Sequence record: MH560358
DNA length: 64,000 bases
Source: Escherichia virus KFS-EC
Direction: 5' to 3' (one strand)
The position numbers were made by a program, and so were the translations under genes. Below, one piece after another: positions 50,209 through 61,704 of this stretch (position 1 is its first letter; the number at the start of each line of letters is the position of its first letter). The notes under the pieces were generated by a model. That model was not told where the DNA came from and searched no databases. It worked only from the letters and a program-made list of their open reading frames with translations.

Positions 50209-50216
50209 TATAAATA
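50209..50216 (+). promoter_or_regulatory. T4-type late promoter (TATAAATA)
   Basis: Exact TATAAATA about 21 nt upstream of the gp51 ATG (short leader). Confidence 0.5.
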
Positions 50217-52612: not shown

Positions 52613-54342
52613 ATGACGCATTAACATCATTTCGCGGGATGCGCAAGGAAGCGGAAGAAAACCCGATTGATAAACTTAACAAATTAGATAAACTTGATTC
52701 TATTGATAATTTGCAAGCCGCTACCGAATTGGTGGCTGAGACAGTGGAACAAAAATCTAATGAAGTTGTTGGTGCGGTAGAGGATAACACCGCAGCCAAT
52801 GAATTGACGGCAGAAAATACACAATCTACCGCTGGCAATACCCAAAAAACTTATGAAGAATTGCAAAAACTCAATAATTTCTCTTCTCAGATGAATGAGA
52901 AATTACGTGGTTTTGGTGTTATGATGGAACGTAGATTTGGTGTTGTCAGTAAAATGGCTAGCGGTATTGGTGCGATTGAAGAAGCATTGAAAAAACCGGA
53001 ACAACCGCAAACAATGCCATCACCTCAGCCAGTTTTGCCTACTGTGCCGGAACAGCCTAATAATGACAACTATCAAGGTCTTCCAAAGAAAAAACCAGAT
53101 GTTGAGGAACGGAAGAAAAAGAACGCCACAGATAAGCGTAATGCAGATTCTATGGAAAATCTTCTTAAAGTTGTTCGTGGAGGATTTAAAGAAACCATAG
53201 GTATCTCTAATAAGGTCTTAGGGATGTTATTTAAGATCACTTTGACCGCTATGGCAGAAGCCGCAAAATGGGGTGCTATTTTGATGGGTATTGTTTTTGT
53301 CATTGATACCCTGATGGTTCATTTCAGATATTGGAGCGATTTATTCGAGACAAAGTTCAGTGAATTTATGGATAAGGCCGGAGAATGGGCTGGTCCTATT
53401 AGCGATATTTTAACTACTGTTCGTCAGGTTCGAGATTATTGGTCTAAAGGCGAATATGGGGAGTTAATTAAATCTCTTGTTATGGGTATTGGTGATGCAT
53501 TCTATAAAACCTTTATCCAACTTGATCGAATTATCACTACTGGTATTGCTAAAATTCTTCGCATGATCCCTGGTATGGGTGATTATGCCGATAAGTTAGA
53601 ATATGGTGCTTTAAAATCTGCTGTCGCTCAAGGCTATACGCCAAATGAAAGAGAACTCGAATTAATGGATAAGATCGAGTCTGAACACGAAGAAGACAAA
53701 TATGGAGAGCGCACAGGATGGACAGGAAAAGCCCGTGATATTGGCGAAGCTATTGGGGATTCTATTAAGGATAAAGTTAACGAAGGTCTTGTTAGTCTGG
53801 GCTGGAGAGATCAAAAGGATGTTGACGCAGAGAAACGACAAGAAGAATTAAAACGCGGGGAATATAAGTCTGTTTCTGCTGAACAACGATCTGCTAGTCG
53901 TAAACTTAGAATTAAAAGCGAGGGCGCGATCAATAATATTAATGAAGTTATGGAGAATTTGAGCGGTGACTATGACAAAGAAAGAATGGGAGAGTTGAAA
54001 AAGGATATTGATGTTTACCGTGAGCAAGTTCAAGATCCTACATTAGTTGAAAGTGATCGTTCTCAGTTAGAGCGTCTTATTGAAAAATTTGATGAGATGT
54101 ATGCTGATAAAACTAAGGGTGTGGTTCCAACTAATCCTGTTCCTGCAACTGAAACGGAAACAGCAAAACAAGCGGAACGTACTGAACAAATGCAGAAACA
54201 AGCTGCAATCCAGCAACAAACGACAAATCAGACCTCAAACGTAAATAATACACAAATTGTAACAAACAATAGAACTATTAAACAGGGTGCACCAACAACT
54301 AGAATTGATGCTCCCGGTACAATTAATATGGGGAACTTTTAA
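52609..54342 (+). CDS. 29: tail length determinator / baseplate hub protein gp29
   Basis: 577 aa; hydrophobic central segment; position. Confidence 0.7.
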   Translation: MNDALTSFRGMRKEAEENPIDKLNKLDKLDSIDNLQAATELVAETVEQKSNEVVGAVEDNTAANELTAENTQSTAGNTQKTYEELQKLNNFSSQMNEKLRGFGVMMERRFGVVSKMASGIGAIEEALKKPEQPQTMPSPQPVLPTVPEQPNNDNYQGLPKKKPDVEERKKKNATDKRNADSMENLLKVVRGGFKETIGISNKVLGMLFKITLTAMAEAAKWGAILMGIVFVIDTLMVHFRYWSDLFETKFSEFMDKAGEWAGPISDILTTVRQVRDYWSKGEYGELIKSLVMGIGDAFYKTFIQLDRIITTGIAKILRMIPGMGDYADKLEYGALKSAVAQGYTPNERELELMDKIESEHEEDKYGERTGWTGKARDIGEAIGDSIKDKVNEGLVSLGWRDQKDVDAEKRQEELKRGEYKSVSAEQRSASRKLRIKSEGAINNINEVMENLSGDYDKERMGELKKDIDVYREQVQDPTLVESDRSQLERLIEKFDEMYADKTKGVVPTNPVPATETETAKQAERTEQMQKQAAIQQQTTNQTSNVNNTQIVTNNRTIKQGAPTTRIDAPGTINMGNF

Positions 54343-55400
54343 TGAAAATTAGTGTTATCAATGATGCCGTTGATAGCTTTAAAGCGGGGGTTAAAACCTC
54401 CGCTGGTTTTACCTCAAAAAATAAAGGGAAAACATTAACCGCTCAATTCCCCGCTGAACGTGCTAGCGGTAATGATGCTAGCGGTTATTATATCAACGAC
54501 TTATATAATAATGGTCTGTTATTCACTGCATACGATTATACATCTCGTACTACTGGTTCGTTGCGTGATTTCAGGAAAAAGAAAAATGTTGCTAGCGGTT
54601 TTGGCGGTAGCGTTAATATCGCTGGTTTTGATTTAAATTTGGGTGGGAGAAATGCTGCATTTGACCGAGAGGCAATTGCTAATATTCTTCTTCCTCGTAG
54701 TCAATCTGACGTTGACGCTGCCAGCCATAAGTTTAATGATGTTGGTGAATCTGTTATTTCTCGCGGCGGTGGTACTTTAGGCGGTGCTCTTTCTAATATG
54801 GCATCTACTGCCGTTTTTGGTGGTATCGAAAGTATTACTGGTGGATACCTTGCCGATCACGGTGAACAGATTTATAATACTGCGCGAAGCATGTATGCGG
54901 GTGCTGACGCACGAACGAAAAACTACGTATGGCATCTAACCCCACGTAGTATTGAAGACCTTCGCAATATTCTGATCATATACGAAACGTTTTTAGAATT
55001 GTCTTATGGTTCTAGTGGTATTTCCAGCACCGCAAAAGAATTAAAAGCGGAAGTTGATGCGTGGTATAAAAATACACTATTGAGAAAATCCACTCCAGAG
55101 GAAGCGAAGAGAAATGATACTCTGTTTGAAGGGATCACCGATTTTCTATCAAACGTAATTACTGTATCTAACCCGACAATATGGATGATCTCTAACTTCG
55201 GCAAGCGTACATCGTTTGAAGGGCGTAGCGATGCATTTGGTCCCGCTCAGATCTCAAGTGTACGTCTGGACAAGTCGCCTGATGGTAAGTTTAATGGCCT
55301 TGCTATTTCTCCTAACTTGCCGAGTACCTTTGTTCTGGAAGTATCATTTAGAGAGATCTTGACACTTTCCCGTGGTACTATATTTGGGAGTGCGGCATAA
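54342..55400 (+). CDS. 48: baseplate tail-tube junction protein gp48
   Basis: 352 aa; position. Confidence 0.7.
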   Translation: MKISVINDAVDSFKAGVKTSAGFTSKNKGKTLTAQFPAERASGNDASGYYINDLYNNGLLFTAYDYTSRTTGSLRDFRKKKNVASGFGGSVNIAGFDLNLGGRNAAFDREAIANILLPRSQSDVDAASHKFNDVGESVISRGGGTLGGALSNMASTAVFGGIESITGGYLADHGEQIYNTARSMYAGADARTKNYVWHLTPRSIEDLRNILIIYETFLELSYGSSGISSTAKELKAEVDAWYKNTLLRKSTPEEAKRNDTLFEGITDFLSNVITVSNPTIWMISNFGKRTSFEGRSDAFGPAQISSVRLDKSPDGKFNGLAISPNLPSTFVLEVSFREILTLSRGTIFGSAA

Positions 55401-56332
55401 TGTTTGATTTAAATGACTTTAACGAACAAGCCGCTAACCTTGACTTTCAGCGATCTAACTTATTCAGCGTGGCATTTGCCACCACTCCAAGTAATAAGAC
55501 ACAAGCGATCCTAGAAAGTATGGGCGGTGCGGTATATGATATTATACCAAATGCATTAAATGACTATTTCGGGATTACTCGTGGTGATTATACTGACGCA
55601 TTAACAAATCTTGCTGTACAGGGTGTTAGGCGTGCTGTTGATTCATCTGGTGTCAAAAAGTATCTTTTAGGTGCAATGTCATCCCGCGTAGTTCAATCTC
55701 TTCTGGGGCAATTTGATGTTGGTACGTATGCTCTTGACTGGTTCAATATGGCATATAAGACAAGCGGTCTTCTGGTGTATGCTGTTAAGGTTCCAGAAAA
55801 CAGATTGAATTATGAAATGGACCGCAATCACAATGCACCAAACATTCGAATTACCGGACGTGATTTTGACCCGCTTGTATTGAGCTTTAGAATGGACTCT
55901 AGCGCATCAAACTATAGAGCAATGCAGGATTGGGTTAACTCAGTAGAAGACCCAGTTACAGGGCTTCGTGCGCTTCCTGTTGACGTTGAAGCAGATATTC
56001 AGGTTAACTTACATAACCGAATGGGAGTTCCTCACACGATCATGATGTTTAATGGTTGTGTTCCTGTTGGTGTGAGTGCACCGGAATTAAACTATGAAAA
56101 CAACAACGAAATCACAACATTCGATGTTACTTTCGCATATCGTTCTATGCAAACTGGTGCTGTAGGAGAGCAAGCCGCGCGAGAATGGATTGAGGATAAG
56201 GCAATAAACGCAATAACAAACACTTTCGGCAATAATTTACTTGATAGTGGGTTATCTGCTGCTGGTAATGCTTTATCGCGTCTAAATGGCGTTGGTGGGC
56301 GTGTGGTGAATACTGTCACTAACTGGTTCTGA
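55400..56332 (+). CDS. 54: baseplate tail-tube initiator gp54
   Basis: 310 aa; position. Confidence 0.7.
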   Translation: MFDLNDFNEQAANLDFQRSNLFSVAFATTPSNKTQAILESMGGAVYDIIPNALNDYFGITRGDYTDALTNLAVQGVRRAVDSSGVKKYLLGAMSSRVVQSLLGQFDVGTYALDWFNMAYKTSGLLVYAVKVPENRLNYEMDRNHNAPNIRITGRDFDPLVLSFRMDSSASNYRAMQDWVNSVEDPVTGLRALPVDVEADIQVNLHNRMGVPHTIMMFNGCVPVGVSAPELNYENNNEITTFDVTFAYRSMQTGAVGEQAAREWIEDKAINAITNTFGNNLLDSGLSAAGNALSRLNGVGGRVVNTVTNWF

Positions 56333-56341
56333 TGAACGAAA

Positions 56342-56365
56342 GGCGGGGATTATCCCCGCCTTTTT
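56342..56365. terminator. bidirectional intrinsic terminator
   Basis: GGCGGGGA-TTA-TCCCCGCC hairpin flanked by A-run and T-run. Confidence 0.7.
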
Positions 56366-56834
56366 ATTTTGCTAAATCATTGCAATATTTTAGTGCCTTA
56401 GTTTGAAATTCTGCGCTGTTAAGTTCTTCATAACGGTCATAATCACCGTTTAATGCTGCCTTTCTTGCTTCTTGCTCTATCTGCATGTCAGACATGATAA
56501 TACAGCGATCCCGCGCTTTCATCTTCTCAAGTTGTATAGACTCTTCTTTCTGCTTGCGCAATTCTTCTTGACGCTTCTTTTCTTCTTGTGCTTCTTTGAT
56601 TGCATCCTTGAACATCTGCGTTTGTGGTGCTAAACCAACTTTAACGCGATCCACGTCTCGACGTTCCATTTTAGAAATAAAGCACGATTCGATCTGATCA
56701 TCACTTGCATATGCTGCTTTACATTCACGAAGCAAGAAAACCGGATCTGATTTAGCATTCATCATAGCTTCCATGTTGGCACAACCAGTAAGCATGAATG
56801 CAGCCGCAAGACCAATCAGTTTAATCATTTTCAT
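56364..56834 (-). CDS. predicted lipoprotein (156 aa)
   Basis: Signal peptide with lipobox LTGC (MKMIKLIGLAAAFMLTGC); charged coiled-coil-like middle; own GAGGTGA SD inside the 3' end of the upstream gene. Confidence 0.6.
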   Translation of the reverse strand: MKMIKLIGLAAAFMLTGCANMEAMMNAKSDPVFLLRECKAAYASDDQIESCFISKMERRDVDRVKVGLAPQTQMFKDAIKEAQEEKKRQEELRKQKEESIQLEKMKARDRCIIMSDMQIEQEARKAALNGDYDRYEELNSAEFQTKALKYCNDLAK

Positions 56835-57655
56835 TTAGTCACCTCACCGAAAATTGTAAATTGTCTACGATTCTCATCGCCGAAAGATTCTACTACGTCG
56901 TTTACCTTGACGCAAGTCCCGCGCGGTAAAATTACTTCACATTCGCAAGGGTTCCATGCAATTGACCCAACAACAAAACCTTTATGATCTTTTACGTCAA
57001 TTACCCATGATACATTACAAGAATGTTGCATCTTTCCGGTCATTGATTCATATCGATTCTCACAATAAAGGCTAGTGCTGTTTGATAGCCATCCTCCAAA
57101 GATGATTGGTGTCATGCTGGTTGACACAAAGTTTTTAAAGGTAAATTCCTTATCTTCAATAATACGCTCTATTGTCTGAATGTCAAGATGTTGACCGCGA
57201 TAAAGAGTACCGTTTAACTTTTCGGTTTTATCCATGACACAATCCATCAAATCGACAATCTCTGATATCTCATCGGTCATGTCTTCTTCCCCTAAGAGAG
57301 CACCATTTACCCATTCGTATTGCTCAGACACATAATCACAGATTGCATTATATTCTGCTGGTGTTATGTTGTTATGTTTGTAATGTTTGAATACATTATC
57401 TCCAAAGTCTTCGGAGTGTACTTCATACATCACATTAATGATTTTCTTGACAAATCCATAATCTTGTGTCTCACGCTCAAGGAAGCGGATAACCTTCACA
57501 TAATCATCAAAGTTAATCTGATCGCTGATCATCTCAGTGATCATGTAACCATTAATCCCCTCAATGTCATATGTTTCGATGTAATTATCCATACGTTCCA
57601 TCATTGATTCGCGTGATTCTTCTGAAAGACGAAAATCCTGTAATTTCTTGAACAT
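56831..57655 (-). CDS. Alt-like ADP-ribosyltransferase paralogue (274 aa)
   Basis: R-S-ExE triad: LYRG, FVSTS, ECEVILPRG, parallel to YRG / YVSTS / ECEILLPRG in the adjacent Alt. Confidence 0.7.
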   Translation of the reverse strand: MFKKLQDFRLSEESRESMMERMDNYIETYDIEGINGYMITEMISDQINFDDYVKVIRFLERETQDYGFVKKIINVMYEVHSEDFGDNVFKHYKHNNITPAEYNAICDYVSEQYEWVNGALLGEEDMTDEISEIVDLMDCVMDKTEKLNGTLYRGQHLDIQTIERIIEDKEFTFKNFVSTSMTPIIFGGWLSNSTSLYCENRYESMTGKMQHSCNVSWVIDVKDHKGFVVGSIAWNPCECEVILPRGTCVKVNDVVESFGDENRRQFTIFGEVTK

Positions 57656-57666
57656 TTTAAGCCTCC

Positions 57667-57700
57667 CATATAACAGAAAACGGGGCTAGTATAAAACTAG
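57667..57700. terminator. bidirectional hairpin terminator
   Basis: Perfect palindrome AAAACGGGGCTAGT...ACTAGTCCCCGTTTT. Confidence 0.65.
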
Positions 57701-57733
57701 TCCCCGTTTTAGTCAACCATTATTTCTTAAAAA

Positions 57734-59785
57734 TTACATTTTAAATTTATCTGGCATTGCGTCTACAGATACCAGATCAGCGATAAGCTGACGTAGAGTT
57801 GCCTTATCTGCTTTCTTACGTTCGGTTTTAGCTTCGCTAATGAAGCTGGAGAAAGACAGGTCAGAAGCAGGTTTAACAACACCTTCACGGATGAATGCAT
57901 CACCGTCCGCGATCATCTCGCCAGATTCTTGTAATGCTGCCAGTTCATTTTTGTTCATAATATGTGCCTCAATGTAATAAGTTTCTTGTGAATCCGTCGA
58001 TGCCGTAGCACGAGTTACCGTATCAAAGGATAACACAACACCGCGAGGAAGTAAAATCTCGCATTCTTTGTAAGCAAATGCTTTGTTACCTACTGGCAAG
58101 ACAGGGAGGTTTTCCGCGCCAGCAATGGAGAAAGCAACATTAGCGCCACCTTCACCACGAGAGCCAGCCATAGAATCAACACCAGCAACGGCACTAGCCA
58201 CGTTTGCATTCCAGCCGCCAAAAATGTTAGGTGCAAGGGAAGTGCTCACATAGTTTTTAAAGTAAAACGCTTTTTGCTTACGTGCAGTTTCCCACATTTG
58301 CGACCGGAAGTCCATACCACGATACAGAATAGTACCCGGATCAAGTTTAACGCCATAGTTGGAGAAGGCATTATCCAGTGCATCGCACATCTTGACCAAT
58401 TCTTCTGGATCTGAGATGCCTTCAAACTCTTCCAGCTTACGGTCGGTTAGGAAGTTGTTCATATTGATGTATGCTGCATCGGCATATTCGCTCAACACAA
58501 AACCTTCCGCGCCTGGCAGATCAAGATCAATATCTGCCATCATTTCACCCATGTTGCTAGCAATTGCTTCAAACATACCGGAAGCAACATTACGTAGGGC
58601 ATCGGTTTTAATCTGGGTGATGTGACTACGCAGCATTTCAGCTTTTACATCTGCTGGCATAGACTGGTCTACTCGAACCATTGCTAGGGCGGTGATCTTG
58701 TTTTCGAATACTTCCTCGCTCATGATTTCTTTTAAGCGTTTGATTGATGCTGCGATAACTTCCGCAGACAACGGATCATATTGATCCTGAACTTTTACCA
58801 GTTCGCTTACTGCGTATTTTGCATCGGCTTCGCTTTCAAAAATAGTACGCATGAAACCATAGCGAGTGATAATATCACTTGTCCAGTCATTCAGAGAACG
58901 GGCGGTTGAACGTTCTAAGGCTTGACGATCAATCAGAGTATTAAACTGTTTCTTAGGTTCGGCTTCGGTGATATCTTCTTCCGGTTTAAGATTAATTTTT
59001 TCTGGATGATTCACATAGTCGCTGTTATAGGTCGCTTGAGTTTTCAGCATTTCTTCTTTAGTCAAACGAGATTTAGCCGCTACGCGTTGTTCCGCTTCCG
59101 CGTTTCGTTCTTCTTCTGACACAAGACTAGCCGCATACGCCTCATCTTTAGTCAGTGATTCACCAGTAGCCTTAGATACCCAGCGATCACCTAAATCACT
59201 TTCTACTTTAGTGAACAAGGATTCATCAAGTTTAATCCCTTTAATCTTATCAATCGCCATACCGCGACGCTTGACAACAACTAAAGCGATCTTTTTGCTG
59301 GTCATTACTTCCTGCTGGAATACTTCAAACTTCGGTGTACGACGCACCAAACGCTCTATAACGCGCTTAACCAGTTCGGTCTTACCTTTCATGCGGGATA
59401 CGTTAAAACGGAACATAACAGCGTCTAATTGCGCTTTACGGGCTGTTTCCATAACCACATCAAAAGCACTTGCCATGACTGCAATCGGGTTATCGCCTAG
59501 ACCATTTTTAAGCTGTACAATACGACCGCTTTTGTTCATTTCGCACAGTACAACATGTGCGGTCTTGTCACCCATACGAATGATTTTAGGTGTTTTGTTG
59601 GTGAAGTTACAAAGACGGACAATCACATCTTTATCGCGTGTCTGTACTGCAAAAAGCTGTTTAGGATTCTGCTTAGGCTTTAAGCACTGTACAGGAGCAA
59701 TACTGCCAAAGTTTTCTTCCTCTTCCGTCAACAGCCATTTCTCGAAAGATTCAATCATTAGATCGTCGATTTCTAAGTTAAACAT
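57734..59785 (-). CDS. alt: ADP-ribosyltransferase Alt
   Basis: 683 aa, C-terminal R-STS-ExE motifs; position after gene 54 as in T4. Confidence 0.85.
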   Translation of the reverse strand: MFNLEIDDLMIESFEKWLLTEEEENFGSIAPVQCLKPKQNPKQLFAVQTRDKDVIVRLCNFTNKTPKIIRMGDKTAHVVLCEMNKSGRIVQLKNGLGDNPIAVMASAFDVVMETARKAQLDAVMFRFNVSRMKGKTELVKRVIERLVRRTPKFEVFQQEVMTSKKIALVVVKRRGMAIDKIKGIKLDESLFTKVESDLGDRWVSKATGESLTKDEAYAASLVSEEERNAEAEQRVAAKSRLTKEEMLKTQATYNSDYVNHPEKINLKPEEDITEAEPKKQFNTLIDRQALERSTARSLNDWTSDIITRYGFMRTIFESEADAKYAVSELVKVQDQYDPLSAEVIAASIKRLKEIMSEEVFENKITALAMVRVDQSMPADVKAEMLRSHITQIKTDALRNVASGMFEAIASNMGEMMADIDLDLPGAEGFVLSEYADAAYINMNNFLTDRKLEEFEGISDPEELVKMCDALDNAFSNYGVKLDPGTILYRGMDFRSQMWETARKQKAFYFKNYVSTSLAPNIFGGWNANVASAVAGVDSMAGSRGEGGANVAFSIAGAENLPVLPVGNKAFAYKECEILLPRGVVLSFDTVTRATASTDSQETYYIEAHIMNKNELAALQESGEMIADGDAFIREGVVKPASDLSFSSFISEAKTERKKADKATLRQLIADLVSVDAMPDKFKM

Positions 59786-59853
59786 TTTATATCCTCTAGT
59801 TGATAACCTATAAACCTATATTTATGAAAACGGGGATTAACGCCCCCTTTTTA

Positions 59854-60066
59854 TTATAATGCACCATCAAGCAATTGCTCTAAGGTGTATCCTGAATAGT
59901 CTTTTTCAATCAGGATATATTTTCCTACTCGTTTAATACAACCACGCATTTCAACGTATTCTGCGTAGTTGATGGTACGAGTTGTTCCATCTTCCAGTAA
60001 TGCAGTACCGATTTCGTTAATGCGGTCATAAGTTACGTCGGTAATGATGATTTCGATGTTAGCCAT
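59854..60066 (-). CDS. hypothetical protein (70 aa)
   Basis: Start set at ATG 60066, which abuts the PeSL-like cassette; the track's N-terminal extension is translation of the leader. Confidence 0.5.
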   Translation of the reverse strand: MANIEIIITDVTYDRINEIGTALLEDGTTRTINYAEYVEMRGCIKRVGKYILIEKDYSGYTLEQLLDGAL

Positions 60067-60140
60067 TTGATACTCCTTAGTAGTTCGTTTCGGTATGTGT
60101 GCATTATAGGGGATCACCGATCCCCTGTCAACAACTTTTT
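60067..60140 (-). promoter_or_regulatory. PeSL-like early promoter cassette
   Basis: TTGACA (60126-60131 minus), GGGGATC...GATCCCC inverted repeat, leader CGAAACGAACTACTAAGGAGTATCAAATG. Confidence 0.6.
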
Positions 60141-60657
60141 AGTTATTTTTTAATTGTTCATCTTGCAATAATGCAATCACATGCTGGCGATGTTCTTCCG
60201 ATTGAGGTACACCGAAAAAGTTTGTTTTGTAGAAATACTCTAATCGGTCTTCTCGTGTGCTCTCTTCCATCATGATCGCGGGTAGTCCGAGATTTCGGAA
60301 ACGTCGCTTTTCTGCTGGCGTAAAATCACTGTAATACAACATAGAATCATCATTACAAGCAATGCTAAACTCATCTTTCATAAAGGAGAATATTGCGTTT
60401 AAACGCTGTTTACCGTCCACGATTTCGATCTCATAGCGAGAGCCATCATCAATCTTAGCCATTGCGATAGCACCAACCGGAAAATCATTAATCAGGTTTT
60501 CGATAAACATACGTTTGTTTTCGGTGTCCCATACCAAAGGACGCTGATAATCTGGGTTCATGTTGATATAGCCATCTTCTAACCATGCTTCGTAAACAGA
60601 GATGACAAAGTTTTTAGTATTGGTATAGTAACGGCGTTTAGGCGTTAAACGGTTCAT
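60139..60657 (-). CDS. DUF262 / ParB-like nuclease-domain protein
   Basis: DYQRPLVWDTENKRMFIENLINDFPVG...VDGKQRLNAIFSF fits the DUF262 signature (Y-x-RP-x-VW ... DGQQR); start at 60657 with AGGAG SD. Confidence 0.65.
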   Translation of the reverse strand: MNRLTPKRRYYTNTKNFVISVYEAWLEDGYINMNPDYQRPLVWDTENKRMFIENLINDFPVGAIAMAKIDDGSRYEIEIVDGKQRLNAIFSFMKDEFSIACNDDSMLYYSDFTPAEKRRFRNLGLPAIMMEESTREDRLEYFYKTNFFGVPQSEEHRQHVIALLQDEQLKNN

Positions 60658-60658
60658 G

Positions 60659-60991
60659 TTATAGTCTCCTGAATGGATCATCACGTAAATCAATATCTTT
60701 TAAGAACTCATCCCATGAATGGCGGATATTGTTCTTAATTCTCCAGATAAGCGCAGGGATTGAACGCTCTCCCATCTGGAAGTATGGATCATATGATCCG
60801 TATGACCAATATGCTACTACAATTCCACAATCAGCGCAATAGTATTCTATTTCACTTGCTGGCGACCAAAGTCCATCAATATGATCGGTGATCTTGCTTT
60901 CGATGTTATGGCTATGACAATCAGGGCAACGGATGCAATGACCTTGTTTATCGTAATTTGACGTTAGAGAATACTTAAACAATCTCATCAT
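60659..60991 (-). CDS. Cys4 zinc-ribbon protein (110 aa)
   Basis: CIRCPDCHSH...CADCG metal-binding pattern. Confidence 0.5.
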   Translation of the reverse strand: MMRLFKYSLTSNYDKQGHCIRCPDCHSHNIESKITDHIDGLWSPASEIEYYCADCGIVVAYWSYGSYDPYFQMGERSIPALIWRIKNNIRHSWDEFLKDIDLRDDPFRRL

Positions 60992-61704
60992 GGATCCTTA
61001 TTTGCTTCAAATACTGCCTTTGCGAATCCTCGCGGGGTAAGTGACCTGATAGTCTTTGTTTTCGTTCCTTTCCCGCCTAGCTTAGAATGCTGTTTACTGT
61101 ACCCTTTATTAATCTGCACCGGTTTCTTTTCTGGCATTATAAAGCCTTGTCCGGTCCATAAGCAAGTCTTTTTTGGGTACATATCACGGGCGGCAATATA
61201 CTCAGGAAACGTAGGATGCTTATCATCTTCCGGCAAATAACCGCCATATTCCCACGGATGGAACATGTAATCAGGCTTACGCCACATGCTAGAGATAACG
61301 CTTACAGGATTCTCTATCATGTAGGGAACTCCTAGCCATTCACCCAAATAAGCGGTTATTTTAGCTGCCCGTACATCATGAACTTGAATCAATGGTCCTT
61401 GTTCTAGTTTCTTTCGTTCAAAGTGCGCAGCGCCACTAACAGCTAAATTGGTGCACGGTGGGAATGCAAAGATAATATCCGGTTTCCCCCATTCAAGGTC
61501 CATTGCTCTTTCCAGCCAGTTCAAATCAACCCAGGTGTTTACATAGGTAATGTTTTGATGTTCAAATCGGGTATTATATTTTTTGTATGTACCGTGGTCG
61601 CCATCGTCAGCATTAAAGCAGATCACCTTATGACCCGCTTTAGCCCATTCTAACCCCATTATCCCCGATCCGTCAAAGTTGCAGAATATTAATTTTTGTT
61701 TCAT
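60988..61704 (-). CDS. compact DNA C5-cytosine methyltransferase-like protein
   Basis: Motif I-like FCNFDGSGIMG, motif IV IIFAFPPCTNLAVSG (catalytic Pro-Cys), motif VI MIENPVS in canonical order and spacing; no recognisable target-recognition region or motifs IX/X. Confidence 0.6.
   Translation of the reverse strand: MKQKLIFCNFDGSGIMGLEWAKAGHKVICFNADDGDHGTYKKYNTRFEHQNITYVNTWVDLNWLERAMDLEWGKPDIIFAFPPCTNLAVSGAAHFERKKLEQGPLIQVHDVRAAKITAYLGEWLGVPYMIENPVSVISSMWRKPDYMFHPWEYGGYLPEDDKHPTFPEYIAARDMYPKKTCLWTGQGFIMPEKKPVQINKGYSKQHSKLGGKGTKTKTIRSLTPRGFAKAVFEANKDP

Follow-up and report, generated by a model that had tools for sequence, protein, structure and literature searches.

Between alt and the baseplate gene 54 of Escherichia virus KFS-EC (sequence record MH560358), a gene for a short Alt-like ADP-ribosyltransferase (ART) runs directly into a gene for a lipoprotein, and the question raised by this locus is whether two genes so closely coupled encode partners. 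We analysed a 64,000-nucleotide (nt) stretch of this genome (the window, whose coordinates we use throughout; features lie on the minus strand unless marked otherwise), for which an original prediction, made from the sequence alone, had proposed a toxin/immunity-like or superinfection-exclusion pair, or else a packaged internal ART accompanied by a receptor-blocking lipoprotein. Our answer, to which as a whole we give about an even chance, is that the locus would combine an early takeover ART derived from Alt with a functionally separate, polymorphic envelope lipoprotein.

In the list of open reading frames (ORFs) and the raw sequence, the minus strand carries alt (57734..59785), the resident paralogue encoding a full-length Alt ADP-ribosyltransferase of 683 amino acids (aa; phrog_802, E 5e-179), followed by a 78-nt spacer, the 274-aa ORF of the short Alt-type ART (56831..57655), and the 156-aa ORF of the lipoprotein precursor (56364..56834). 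The ART stop and the lipoprotein start overlap by the 4 nt ATGA (56834..56831), and gene 54 (55400..56332, plus strand) is convergent on the pair; both ORFs, their coordinates, the overlap, and the position after alt are as originally read. The DNA of the region is 98-98.6% identical to that of RB49, Sf20, JSE, Phi1, and 53 other Krischvirus records, which by sequence places the window in Krischvirus (RB49-like, T4-like coliphages), and the whole locus is present in 57/57 Krischvirus records. In RB49 the ART ORF is annotated as RB49p183 ("alt paralogue"; also RB49ORF183c) and the lipoprotein ORF, of which the window holds an allele, as RB49p182 (hypothetical; phrog_16112), the latter being called "putative lipoprotein" in phage W115. 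The ART paralogue is already annotated and published, since the sequencing of RB49, and Nolan et al. (2006) counted RB49ORF183c, with T4 alt.-1 and alt.-2, among the paralogous duplications of alt (PMC1524935). The base composition of the locus is unremarkable, and an Rfam scan of positions 54000-61000 returned no RNA family.

The 274-aa protein is a genuine R-S-ExE ADP-ribosyltransferase of the Alt/VIP2 family on the joint evidence of motifs, profile, and fold. The Pfam profile PF03496 matches aa 82-266 at 59.3 bits (cut-off 23.4; E 4e-16), and phrog_15144 is matched end to end (E 3e-198). Its catalytic signature comprises L151-Y-R153-G, S178-T-S180, and E238-C-E240, the R (LYRG), STS (FVSTS), and ExE (ECEV) elements that the original prediction had picked out, and these fall on invariant columns of a homologue alignment reaching down to relatives of 23% identity, in which Y108, N117, and L243-P-R245 are invariant as well. 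The codon of the catalytic Arg153 lies at 57197..57199, those of S178-T179-S180 at 57116..57124, and those of E238-C239-E240, of which E238 and E240 are the invariant positions, at 56936..56944; in the alignment R153, STS, and ExE are in register with T4 Alt, ModA/ModB, Tre1, and SpvB, and ECE or ENE is kept in 9/9 loci compared. E-x-E rather than Q-x-E points to arginine specificity in the R-S-E clade, and the enzyme is predicted to be an arginine-specific mono-ADP-ribosyltransferase.

Structure prediction, proposed earlier as a check on the identity of the enzyme, finds the ART fold. The AlphaFold2 model (pLDDT 82, pTM 0.80) has 139 Foldseek matches in the Protein Data Bank (PDB) at E <= 1e-3, led by Vis, C3bot2, Certhrax, CDT (CDTa), and iota Ia (E 1e-10 to 1e-8, probability 1.0), and the claim of a second Alt-like ART is thereby borne out by PF03496, motifs, and predicted fold alike. 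The motifs and the fold make it very probable that the protein is enzymatically active. It carries no signal peptide. The short ARTs share a conserved loop, GGW.SNSTSLYCENRY (including NSTSLYCENRY), that differs from Alt and is poorly modelled; we consider it a candidate substrate-recognition element.

Only the catalytic core of Alt is represented in the short ART, which aligns to positions 330-602 of 674 in phrog_802, lacks the N-terminal 330 aa of Alt (PF26846, Tevenvirinae_ADPRT, which is listed for the alt beside it but not for the ART itself), and lacks the ...KFKM C-terminal tail of Alt and the longer relatives. By blastp it is 31% identical to T4 Alt over 181 aa (E 9e-23) and 37% identical to the resident Alt over 109 aa (E 7e-16), and the duplication that gave rise to it is old, since T4 Alt is the nearer relative of the two. 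No match to ModA or ModB was found at E <= 10, so that the suggested alignment to the T4 enzymes resolves into homology with the Alt core and no significant similarity to either Mod protein. RB49 has a single Mod gene, RB49p014, at the T4-syntenic place and closer to ModB; this brings the Krischvirus total to three ARTs (Alt, one Mod, and the short ART), equal to that of T4, with the third of Alt descent.

Whether the two ORFs correspond to the T4 ORFs alt.-1, alt.-2, and alt.-3 had been left undecided. T4 alt.-1 (61 aa) and alt.-2 (67 aa) match aa 27-126 of the window's Alt, and alt.-3 (96 aa) has no blastp match in this locus and no lipobox; correspondence of either the ART or the lipoprotein ORF to alt.-1/-2/-3 is ruled out by blastp. 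Other genera have two or three full-length alt copies beside gene 54 and no lipoprotein: three stand in tandem directly beside it in Pseudomonas phage PspYZU05 (locus L017, 3501-9288) and two in Aeromonas phage Riv-10 (locus L018, 1122-4999). The alt/gene 54 junction is a general hotspot of ART gene amplification in T4-like phages.

The signals around the pair differ from those of alt and would set its expression apart. A PeSL-type regulatory cassette (57670..57725) occupies the alt-ART spacer, with an AT-rich stretch, a promoter (-35 TTGACT at 57716..57711, a 17-nt spacer, and -10 TATACT at 57693..57688; 10/12 consensus match), and a G/C stem-loop, CGGGGACTAG/CTAGCCCCG, which overlaps the -10 (57704..57682; dG -22.3 kcal/mol, z -6.3) and doubles as a predicted terminator or attenuator after alt. 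The ART gene has the Shine-Dalgarno sequence GGGAGG (57662..57667) and the lipoprotein gene has GGTGAGGTGA (56839..56848), inside the last ART codons and 4 nt before the ATG. Between the lipoprotein gene and gene 54 lies a bidirectional intrinsic terminator (56338..56364, both strands) with a 12-bp stem, 7 GC pairs, and T-runs on both sides; a hairpin is found at this position in six loci. Metagenomic relatives with an Alt, ART, and lipoprotein only 35-48% identical to those of the window keep the pattern TTGAC[AT]-17-TATACT and the stem, with a mean column identity of 87% over the element and compensatory changes at two stem pairs. PeSLs of RB49 and phi1 are composite early-promoter/terminator cassettes (Arbiol et al. 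2010, PMC2839356), and promoter and terminator activities of other RB49/phi1 copies have been shown with reporters (PMC2839356). The ART-lipoprotein operon stands at the edge of the alt-to-gene-30 hyperplastic region.

Upstream of alt we find a terminator (59847..59832) and the late-promoter-like sequence CATAAATA (AATAAATA in a distant relative), at the place equivalent to the late promoter TATAAATA of T4 alt; a scan of the window for TATAAATA gave 10 matches, the nearest of which ends at 50216 and none of which lies upstream of the short ART. In T4, gpAlt belongs to the prohead core and has a small N-terminal peptide removed by the gp21 protease (PMC9958956). On the strength of these conserved signals we infer that alt would be expressed late and its product packaged, and that ART and lipoprotein would be expressed early as one unit ending at 56338-56364. 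That the pair forms an early bicistronic operon is, judging from the signals and their conservation, highly likely; that the short ART is not packaged is likely too, if with rather less assurance. Its missing Alt ends and sigma-70 PeSL promoter lead us to read it as an early, cytoplasmic, ModA/ModB-like enzyme.

A promoter of its own for the lipoprotein gene was considered and set aside: TTGACA-16-TATTAT (57186..57159), inside the ART gene about 330 nt upstream of the lipoprotein start, matches the consensus at 11/12 positions, is kept only among near-identical genomes and not at that position in locus L007, and is treated as probably due to chance. A further PeSL lies at 60103-60131 (minus strand), upstream of a small ORF (59854..60117), where a perfect sigma-70 consensus, TTGACA-17-TATAAT, has the palindrome GGGGATCGGTGATCCCC as its spacer, with the stem between -35 and -10.

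The two genes keep company far beyond the near-identical genomes. The 7 loci that hold all four genes (the window, RB49, W115, Whisky, JK32, 011D4, and L021) show alt, ART, lipoprotein, and convergent gene 54 in that order, and the same arrangement extends as far as the contig reaches in 7 metagenomic loci (L007, L008, L009, L012, L013, L015, and L023); gene order in L014 was inferred from short flanking ORFs, and the L010 and L011 sequences break off at the ART stop codon, with nothing visible downstream. Even in the most distant loci, where ART is 39-47% and the lipoprotein 24-30% identical to the window's, the pair is adjacent, the junction always being tight (-4, -1, -8, or +1 nt), and no promoter or terminator (PeSL) separates the two genes in any locus examined. 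The tight coupling of ART to lipoprotein gene in the original prediction thus holds both for the ATGA overlap and for the junctions in relatives.

The second protein is a lipoprotein precursor by direct reading of its sequence, as had been claimed from its signal peptide and LTGC lipobox. Its N-terminus, MKMIKLIGLAAAFMLTGC, has K2 and K5, an uncharged stretch, and L15-T-G-C18 (56792..56781), giving a signal peptide of aa 1-17 and a mature part of 139 aa, and it agrees with a PROSITE-type (PS51257) lipobox rule (basic n-region, hydrophobic h-region, [LVI][ASTVI][GAS]C, Cys within the first 35 aa). A regular-expression lipobox scan of about 97% of the genome, strict enough to miss the o-spanin, found it as the only plausible match, one other lying in a TTG-start ORF antisense to alt. 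All family members have 155-174 aa and the lipobox L[TVNF]GC, with Ala or Ser, never Asp, at +2 in every allele (CAN, CAG, CSS, CAV). Asp at +2 causes inner-membrane retention, and the lipoprotein is predicted to be sorted to the outer membrane by Lol. The mature protein (about 16 kDa, pI 5.4, 39% charged, 2 prolines) has four invariant Cys (C38, C51, C111, and C151 in window numbering), probably forming two disulfides, and a G-[DN]-Y motif; the AlphaFold2 model (pLDDT 84) is built of helices only, the one at aa 72-129 being 58 residues long.

Neither sequence nor structure ties this protein to a known family. Foldseek searches with the model found nothing in the PDB below E 0.6 and, in BFVD, only its own family; Pfam, NCBIfam, and PADLOC gave sub-threshold noise only. 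A search of 5.8 billion proteins returned 41 matches, and a profile search of 1.84 billion cluster representatives returned 11, of which 10 belong to the same phage family and one is a spurious eukaryotic phosphatase, pointing to an ORFan family that is confined to Krischvirus-like phages. The lipoprotein is under selection as a protein because its dN/dS is 0.08-0.09 against the two lineages with measurable dS; positive selection, considered as a source of its variability, is unsupported where it can be measured, and the variability comes from allele replacement, not from raised dN/dS. Length also varies in the charged helix: 5 aa of the RB49 form (AREEK; about 56590-56624, minus strand) are missing from the window allele, the metagenomic allele P0026 has 11 aa more, and other alleles are shorter (154 or 146 aa). 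These indels are not heptad multiples, which suggests a single charged helix acting as a spacer rather than a coiled coil.

The two genes also differ in their histories. Across approximately 56389..56805, which covers the coding part of the mature lipoprotein, the window has only about 40% nt identity to phage 011D4, although identity is 97-100% both in the flank that holds alt, ART, and the signal peptide and in the one with the terminator, gene 54, and gene 48. In Whisky and JK32, Alt is 99.4% and ART 97.8-99.6% identical to the window's and the mature lipoprotein only 28-30%; across Whisky, JK32, and 011D4 together, ART keeps 98-100% identity while the lipoprotein has 28-30% aa identity. 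The signal peptide is identical to the window's in Whisky and nearly so in JK32, and in both phages DNA identity falls from about 100% to about 45% at about 56800, just past the lipobox Cys codon, the same left breakpoint as in 011D4. On the other side the divergence of Whisky and JK32 runs on in milder form into genes 54 and 48. Over roughly its final 125 nt (window 56207-56332, plus strand), gene 54 is 48-76% identical in these phages, far more diverged than elsewhere along its length, and because of this diverged 3' end the recombination tract carrying the Whisky/JK32 allele reaches the gp54 C-terminus, as it does not in 011D4. The 011D4 allele is itself a mosaic, its N-terminal half unlike Whisky's and its C-terminal part 74-80% nt identical to Whisky's.

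More distant comparisons tell the same story: with loci L021 and L023, ART dS is 0.32-0.39 and lipoprotein dS 1.1-1.3, so that by these sequence estimates a boundary of histories lies between the two genes. The alleles are also independent of the adhesin, since both gp38 types (95-100% and 80-84% identical to RB49) occur with both lipoprotein classes, all four combinations being found (RB49 and Sf20 vs Whisky and JK32). Linkage of lipoprotein alleles to the baseplate module, hinted at by Whisky and JK32, was discarded as a candidate: it is broken by 011D4, PHB13, and G37-3, which have a diverged lipoprotein (28-30% identical to the window allele) with an RB49-type gp48. From the topology of the two proteins and the allele swaps we judge it likely that ART and lipoprotein are not direct partners. 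Deep, recombining alleles among near-identical genomes are what is expected of genes in phage-phage or phage-host conflict.

We propose that the locus is a two-gene accessory operon, conserved in Krischvirus, between alt and gene 54. The PeSL cassette would supply a sigma-70 early promoter and a stem-loop ending or attenuating alt transcription, and the bicistronic mRNA starting there would end at the bidirectional terminator. Its first cistron would yield a free-standing Alt-type catalytic domain, made early and modifying cytoplasmic host proteins, with a timing and role like those of T4 ModA/ModB; the second, translationally coupled, would yield an exported lipoprotein, anchored in the outer membrane and facing the periplasm. 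The two products would act in different compartments, linked through co-expression and not through physical neutralisation. T-even phages make the exclusion proteins Imm and Sp early, and the lipoprotein, as a polymorphic, recombination-shuffled envelope factor, may similarly alter the envelope early and so block competing or superinfecting phages or lysis from without. We hold such a role, whether against superinfecting or competing phages or as protection from lysis from without, tentatively and by analogy, at somewhat less than an even chance, the remainder being divided among other roles at the envelope. Of the superinfection-exclusion pair in the original prediction, the exclusion half survives as the most plausible reading of the lipoprotein, and the ART as its direct partner probably does not, given the topology and the allele swaps. 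A narrower version, in which the lipoprotein is a balanced-polymorphic exclusion (kin-discrimination) determinant, with deeply diverged, partly mosaic alleles of a disulfide-braced helical scaffold among about 99% identical genomes, seems to us unlikely though worth stating. Alleles would then be swapped as a 0.4-kb cassette, with crossover in the signal-peptide sequence and the terminator/gene 54 end; each would confer a different exclusion spectrum, and early co-expression with ART would tie envelope closure to host takeover.

The idea that the ART is toxic and that its co-translated lipoprotein neutralises it, in the manner of Tre1-Tri1 or other ART-immunity pairs, takes its appeal from genes that are tightly coupled and always adjacent; by phmmer the closest solved sequence to the ART is indeed the type VI secretion system (T6SS) ART toxin Tre1 (6dre_B), if only at E 0.07, and the ART-ARH toxin-immunity entry 8za7_B is among its fold matches. 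Yet the ART has no signal peptide and the lipoprotein is exported, with four Cys typical of an oxidising compartment, and the mature proteins should not meet because the one is cytoplasmic and the other exported. Nor do the two co-vary, the lipoprotein having been replaced beside near-identical ARTs in Whisky, JK32, and 011D4, and a strictly lytic phage needs no protection of its host from its own takeover enzyme; T4 Alt, ModA, and ModB are not known to have immunity partners. We therefore reject a toxin/immunity-like pair as very improbable, on the separate compartments and on allele swaps that leave the ART unchanged. A second packaged ART, injected like Alt, together with a lipoprotein blocking the phage's own receptor like T5 Llp/Cor, fares a little better and still has only a slim chance. 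Tandem alt copies beside gene 54 are common in T4-like phages (those of PspYZU05 and Riv-10 are examples), read-through from the late-type promoter of alt is possible, an L-S-E sequence lies near the ART N-terminus, and there are weak matches to the Cor family phrog_1119. Both Alt termini are missing from the short ART, however, and a conserved sigma-70 promoter of its own and a stem-loop separate it from alt in place of a late-type motif, so that packaging is disfavoured. The Cor matches (E 0.0015-0.006) hardly extend past the signal peptide (at best aa 1-53 of 169), no adhesin or fibre genes adjoin the lipoprotein gene, and its alleles assort independently of gp38, all of which disfavours a blocker of the phage's own receptor.

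If the two proteins instead served one pathway across the envelope, the ART would act on a target in the cytoplasm or inner membrane (for example one in secretion, Lol, or cell division, or a defence sensor), the lipoprotein would handle the other side, and co-translation would set their ratio. Adjacency and a tight junction unbroken in every locus examined, down to the most distant, fit this, as does the lack of any PeSL or terminator between the genes, and the NSTSLYCENRY loop, different from Alt, suggests a distinct substrate. Against it, the lipoprotein allele was replaced in 011D4 while the ART stayed unchanged, the synteny is equally explained by the absence of a recombination site between the genes, PeSL-bounded cassettes moving as units (PMC2839356), and we found no precedent; we regard it as quite unlikely. 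The lipoprotein could also be an envelope factor unrelated to exclusion, in lysis timing or inhibition, as a spanin-like protein, or as a stabiliser of peptidoglycan or outer membrane, which we think improbable but more deserving of attention than a shared pathway. The predicted outer-membrane anchor and the 58-residue helix, about the length of Braun's lipoprotein, would suit such a function, and so would the length polymorphism of that helix (5 aa shorter in the window, 11 aa longer in P0026). RB49, however, has its own spanin pair, holin t, and rI, the gene lies behind an early promoter with no adjacent i-spanin and only 2 prolines in its product, and alleles so deeply diverged between near-identical phages typify conflict genes more than they do lysis machinery.

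Two specific identities for the lipoprotein were pursued and discarded. It is not an o-spanin: RB49 has its own pseT.3/pseT.2 spanins at the T4-syntenic place, with a Pro-rich o-spanin of lipobox ALSSC, and the lipoprotein has the ART gene upstream in place of an adjacent i-spanin and a helical mature part with 2 Pro. Neither spanin nor alt.-x homologue, the two identities that the original prediction had named as telling against it, was found, the RB49 spanins lying elsewhere and blastp giving no match. In the RB49 pseT.2 'Rz-like spanin' ORF (150 aa; locus L020, 10607-11059), ALSSC occupies residues 65-69; translation of the true o-spanin probably begins at an internal Met (MFKKAHKNF...), and the RefSeq start looks too far upstream. 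T4 Imm.1, suggested as a remote homologue by a similar four-Cys pattern and by a match of the Whisky allele to phrog_1754 (E 4e-5), was rejected likewise: hhalign of the lipoprotein with T4 Sp/Imm.1 reaches a probability of 5-8% with the signal peptide included and of 0.1% with Imm.1 when mature parts only are compared, the Pfam family DUF5481 does not match the lipoprotein at E <= 10, and Mosigvirus Imm.1 lacks the N-terminal Cys pair. T4 Imm.1 (DUF5481; locus L019, 10637-11014) is a lipoprotein (LAGC), wrongly named 'iduronate sulfatase' in RefSeq. It adjoins imm in T4, and in Mosigvirus AV110 the order is imm.1, imm, sp (locus L025, 1495-2530), at a different genomic place than in T4, a clustering which suggests that Imm.1 belongs functionally with superinfection immunity.

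Several observations weigh against an early takeover ART with a separate exclusion lipoprotein. The lipoprotein has no detectable similarity to known exclusion proteins, its matches to Cor, T4 Sp, and Imm.1 being weak or confined to the signal peptide. A tblastn search for T4 Sp/Imm in RB49 found neither, one E 0.05 match lying inside gene 41, and their absence is weak evidence, given the small size and rapid evolution of such proteins. An unseen functional link could lie behind the strict synteny and the translational coupling, which persist over deep divergence. The promoter is a consensus match, and read-through from the late promoter of alt could express both genes late; the L-S-E of the short ART stands at aa 10-12, the gp21-type L/I-x-E motif being too degenerate to decide packaging. 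In L013, the most distant relative, the alt-ART spacer has 26 nt (1504-1529) and no stem-loop, and a promoter-like TTGACA-17-TATGAT overlaps the ART start codon, so early ART expression may not hold in that lineage. Literature searches brought up no paper on the lipoprotein, no data on the expression, localisation, or activity of either protein, and no relevant virion proteome or transcriptome from Krischvirus.

What the locus adds lies in its arrangement. By itself the ART adds little, being an ordinary Alt/VIP2 member annotated for more than 20 years at a place where Alt paralogues are common. The PeSL-driven early operon of a core-only Alt paralogue and the cassette-like replacement of lipoprotein alleles are not described in the literature searched; they are new details of known kinds and no strong surprise for a T4 specialist. 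RB49-type phages appear to have turned the catalytic domain of Alt into an early, non-packaged enzyme, and may reach a T4-like set of three ARTs by a different route. The lipoprotein behaves as a conflict-type hotspot of the region, swapped alone between near-identical phages. RB49-type phages are used in phage-therapy cocktails, and should the lipoprotein prove to be an exclusion factor, it would bear on the competition between such phages and on their combination there, and would represent a new, structurally unclassified family of phage envelope effectors.

Elsewhere in the neighbourhood, a 184-aa ORF at 60139-60693 (minus strand) has a counterpart annotated 'DUF262 domain protein' in W115 and one in a metagenomic relative for which Pfam GmrSD_N (PF03235) is recorded; these annotations make its product a phage-encoded relative of a type IV restriction enzyme's N-terminal domain, in the early region beside alt. 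Gene 29 (tape measure/hub, 577 aa in the window) is annotated in Whisky as two ORFs of 178 and 370 aa (locus L003, 6517-8195), a split that could be a frameshift, a sequencing error, or real.

Set beside known systems, the short ART shares with T4 Alt a homologous catalytic core, the same R/STS/ExE residues, and the same C3-like fold, and differs in its size (274 aa vs 682 aa), in its promoter, which is a separate one of sigma-70 type and not a late one, and in probably not being packaged. T4 ModA/ModB are likewise small, free-standing, early ARTs, of which the short ART would have the role, timing, and R...ExE chemistry; they are encoded at another locus and have no significant pairwise similarity to the short ART, which falls in the Alt clade and not in the Mod clade. 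T4 alt.-1/alt.-2/alt.-3 occupy the same interval between alt and gene 54 as the ART-lipoprotein pair, and alt.-1/alt.-2 are also remnants of alt duplication (PMC1524935), but as N-terminal copies without the catalytic domain.

The element upstream of the ART holds all components of the RB49/phi1 PeSLs (sigma-70 hexamers, AT-rich upstream stretch, G/C stem-loop, Shine-Dalgarno sequence, and start), and differs in that its cassette carries, in place of one ORFan, a coupled pair of genes whose types are known and in that lipoprotein alleles are exchanged by crossover at the signal-peptide sequence and the terminator/gene 54 end, not at two PeSLs. For the lipoprotein, T4 Sp, Imm, and Imm.1 are T-even envelope proteins for superinfection immunity that are not homologous to it; Imm.1 falls, like the lipoprotein here, into two deeply diverged classes (95-100% and about 32% identity), a likeness by analogy only. 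T5 Llp and Cor (phi80, N15, T1-like) are phage lipoproteins that block the receptor, and they serve as our working analogy, from which the Krischvirus lipoprotein differs in showing no homology past the signal peptide, in being larger (139 aa mature), helical, and equipped with four Cys, and in having a gene that is not beside receptor-binding protein genes and alleles that are independent of gp38.

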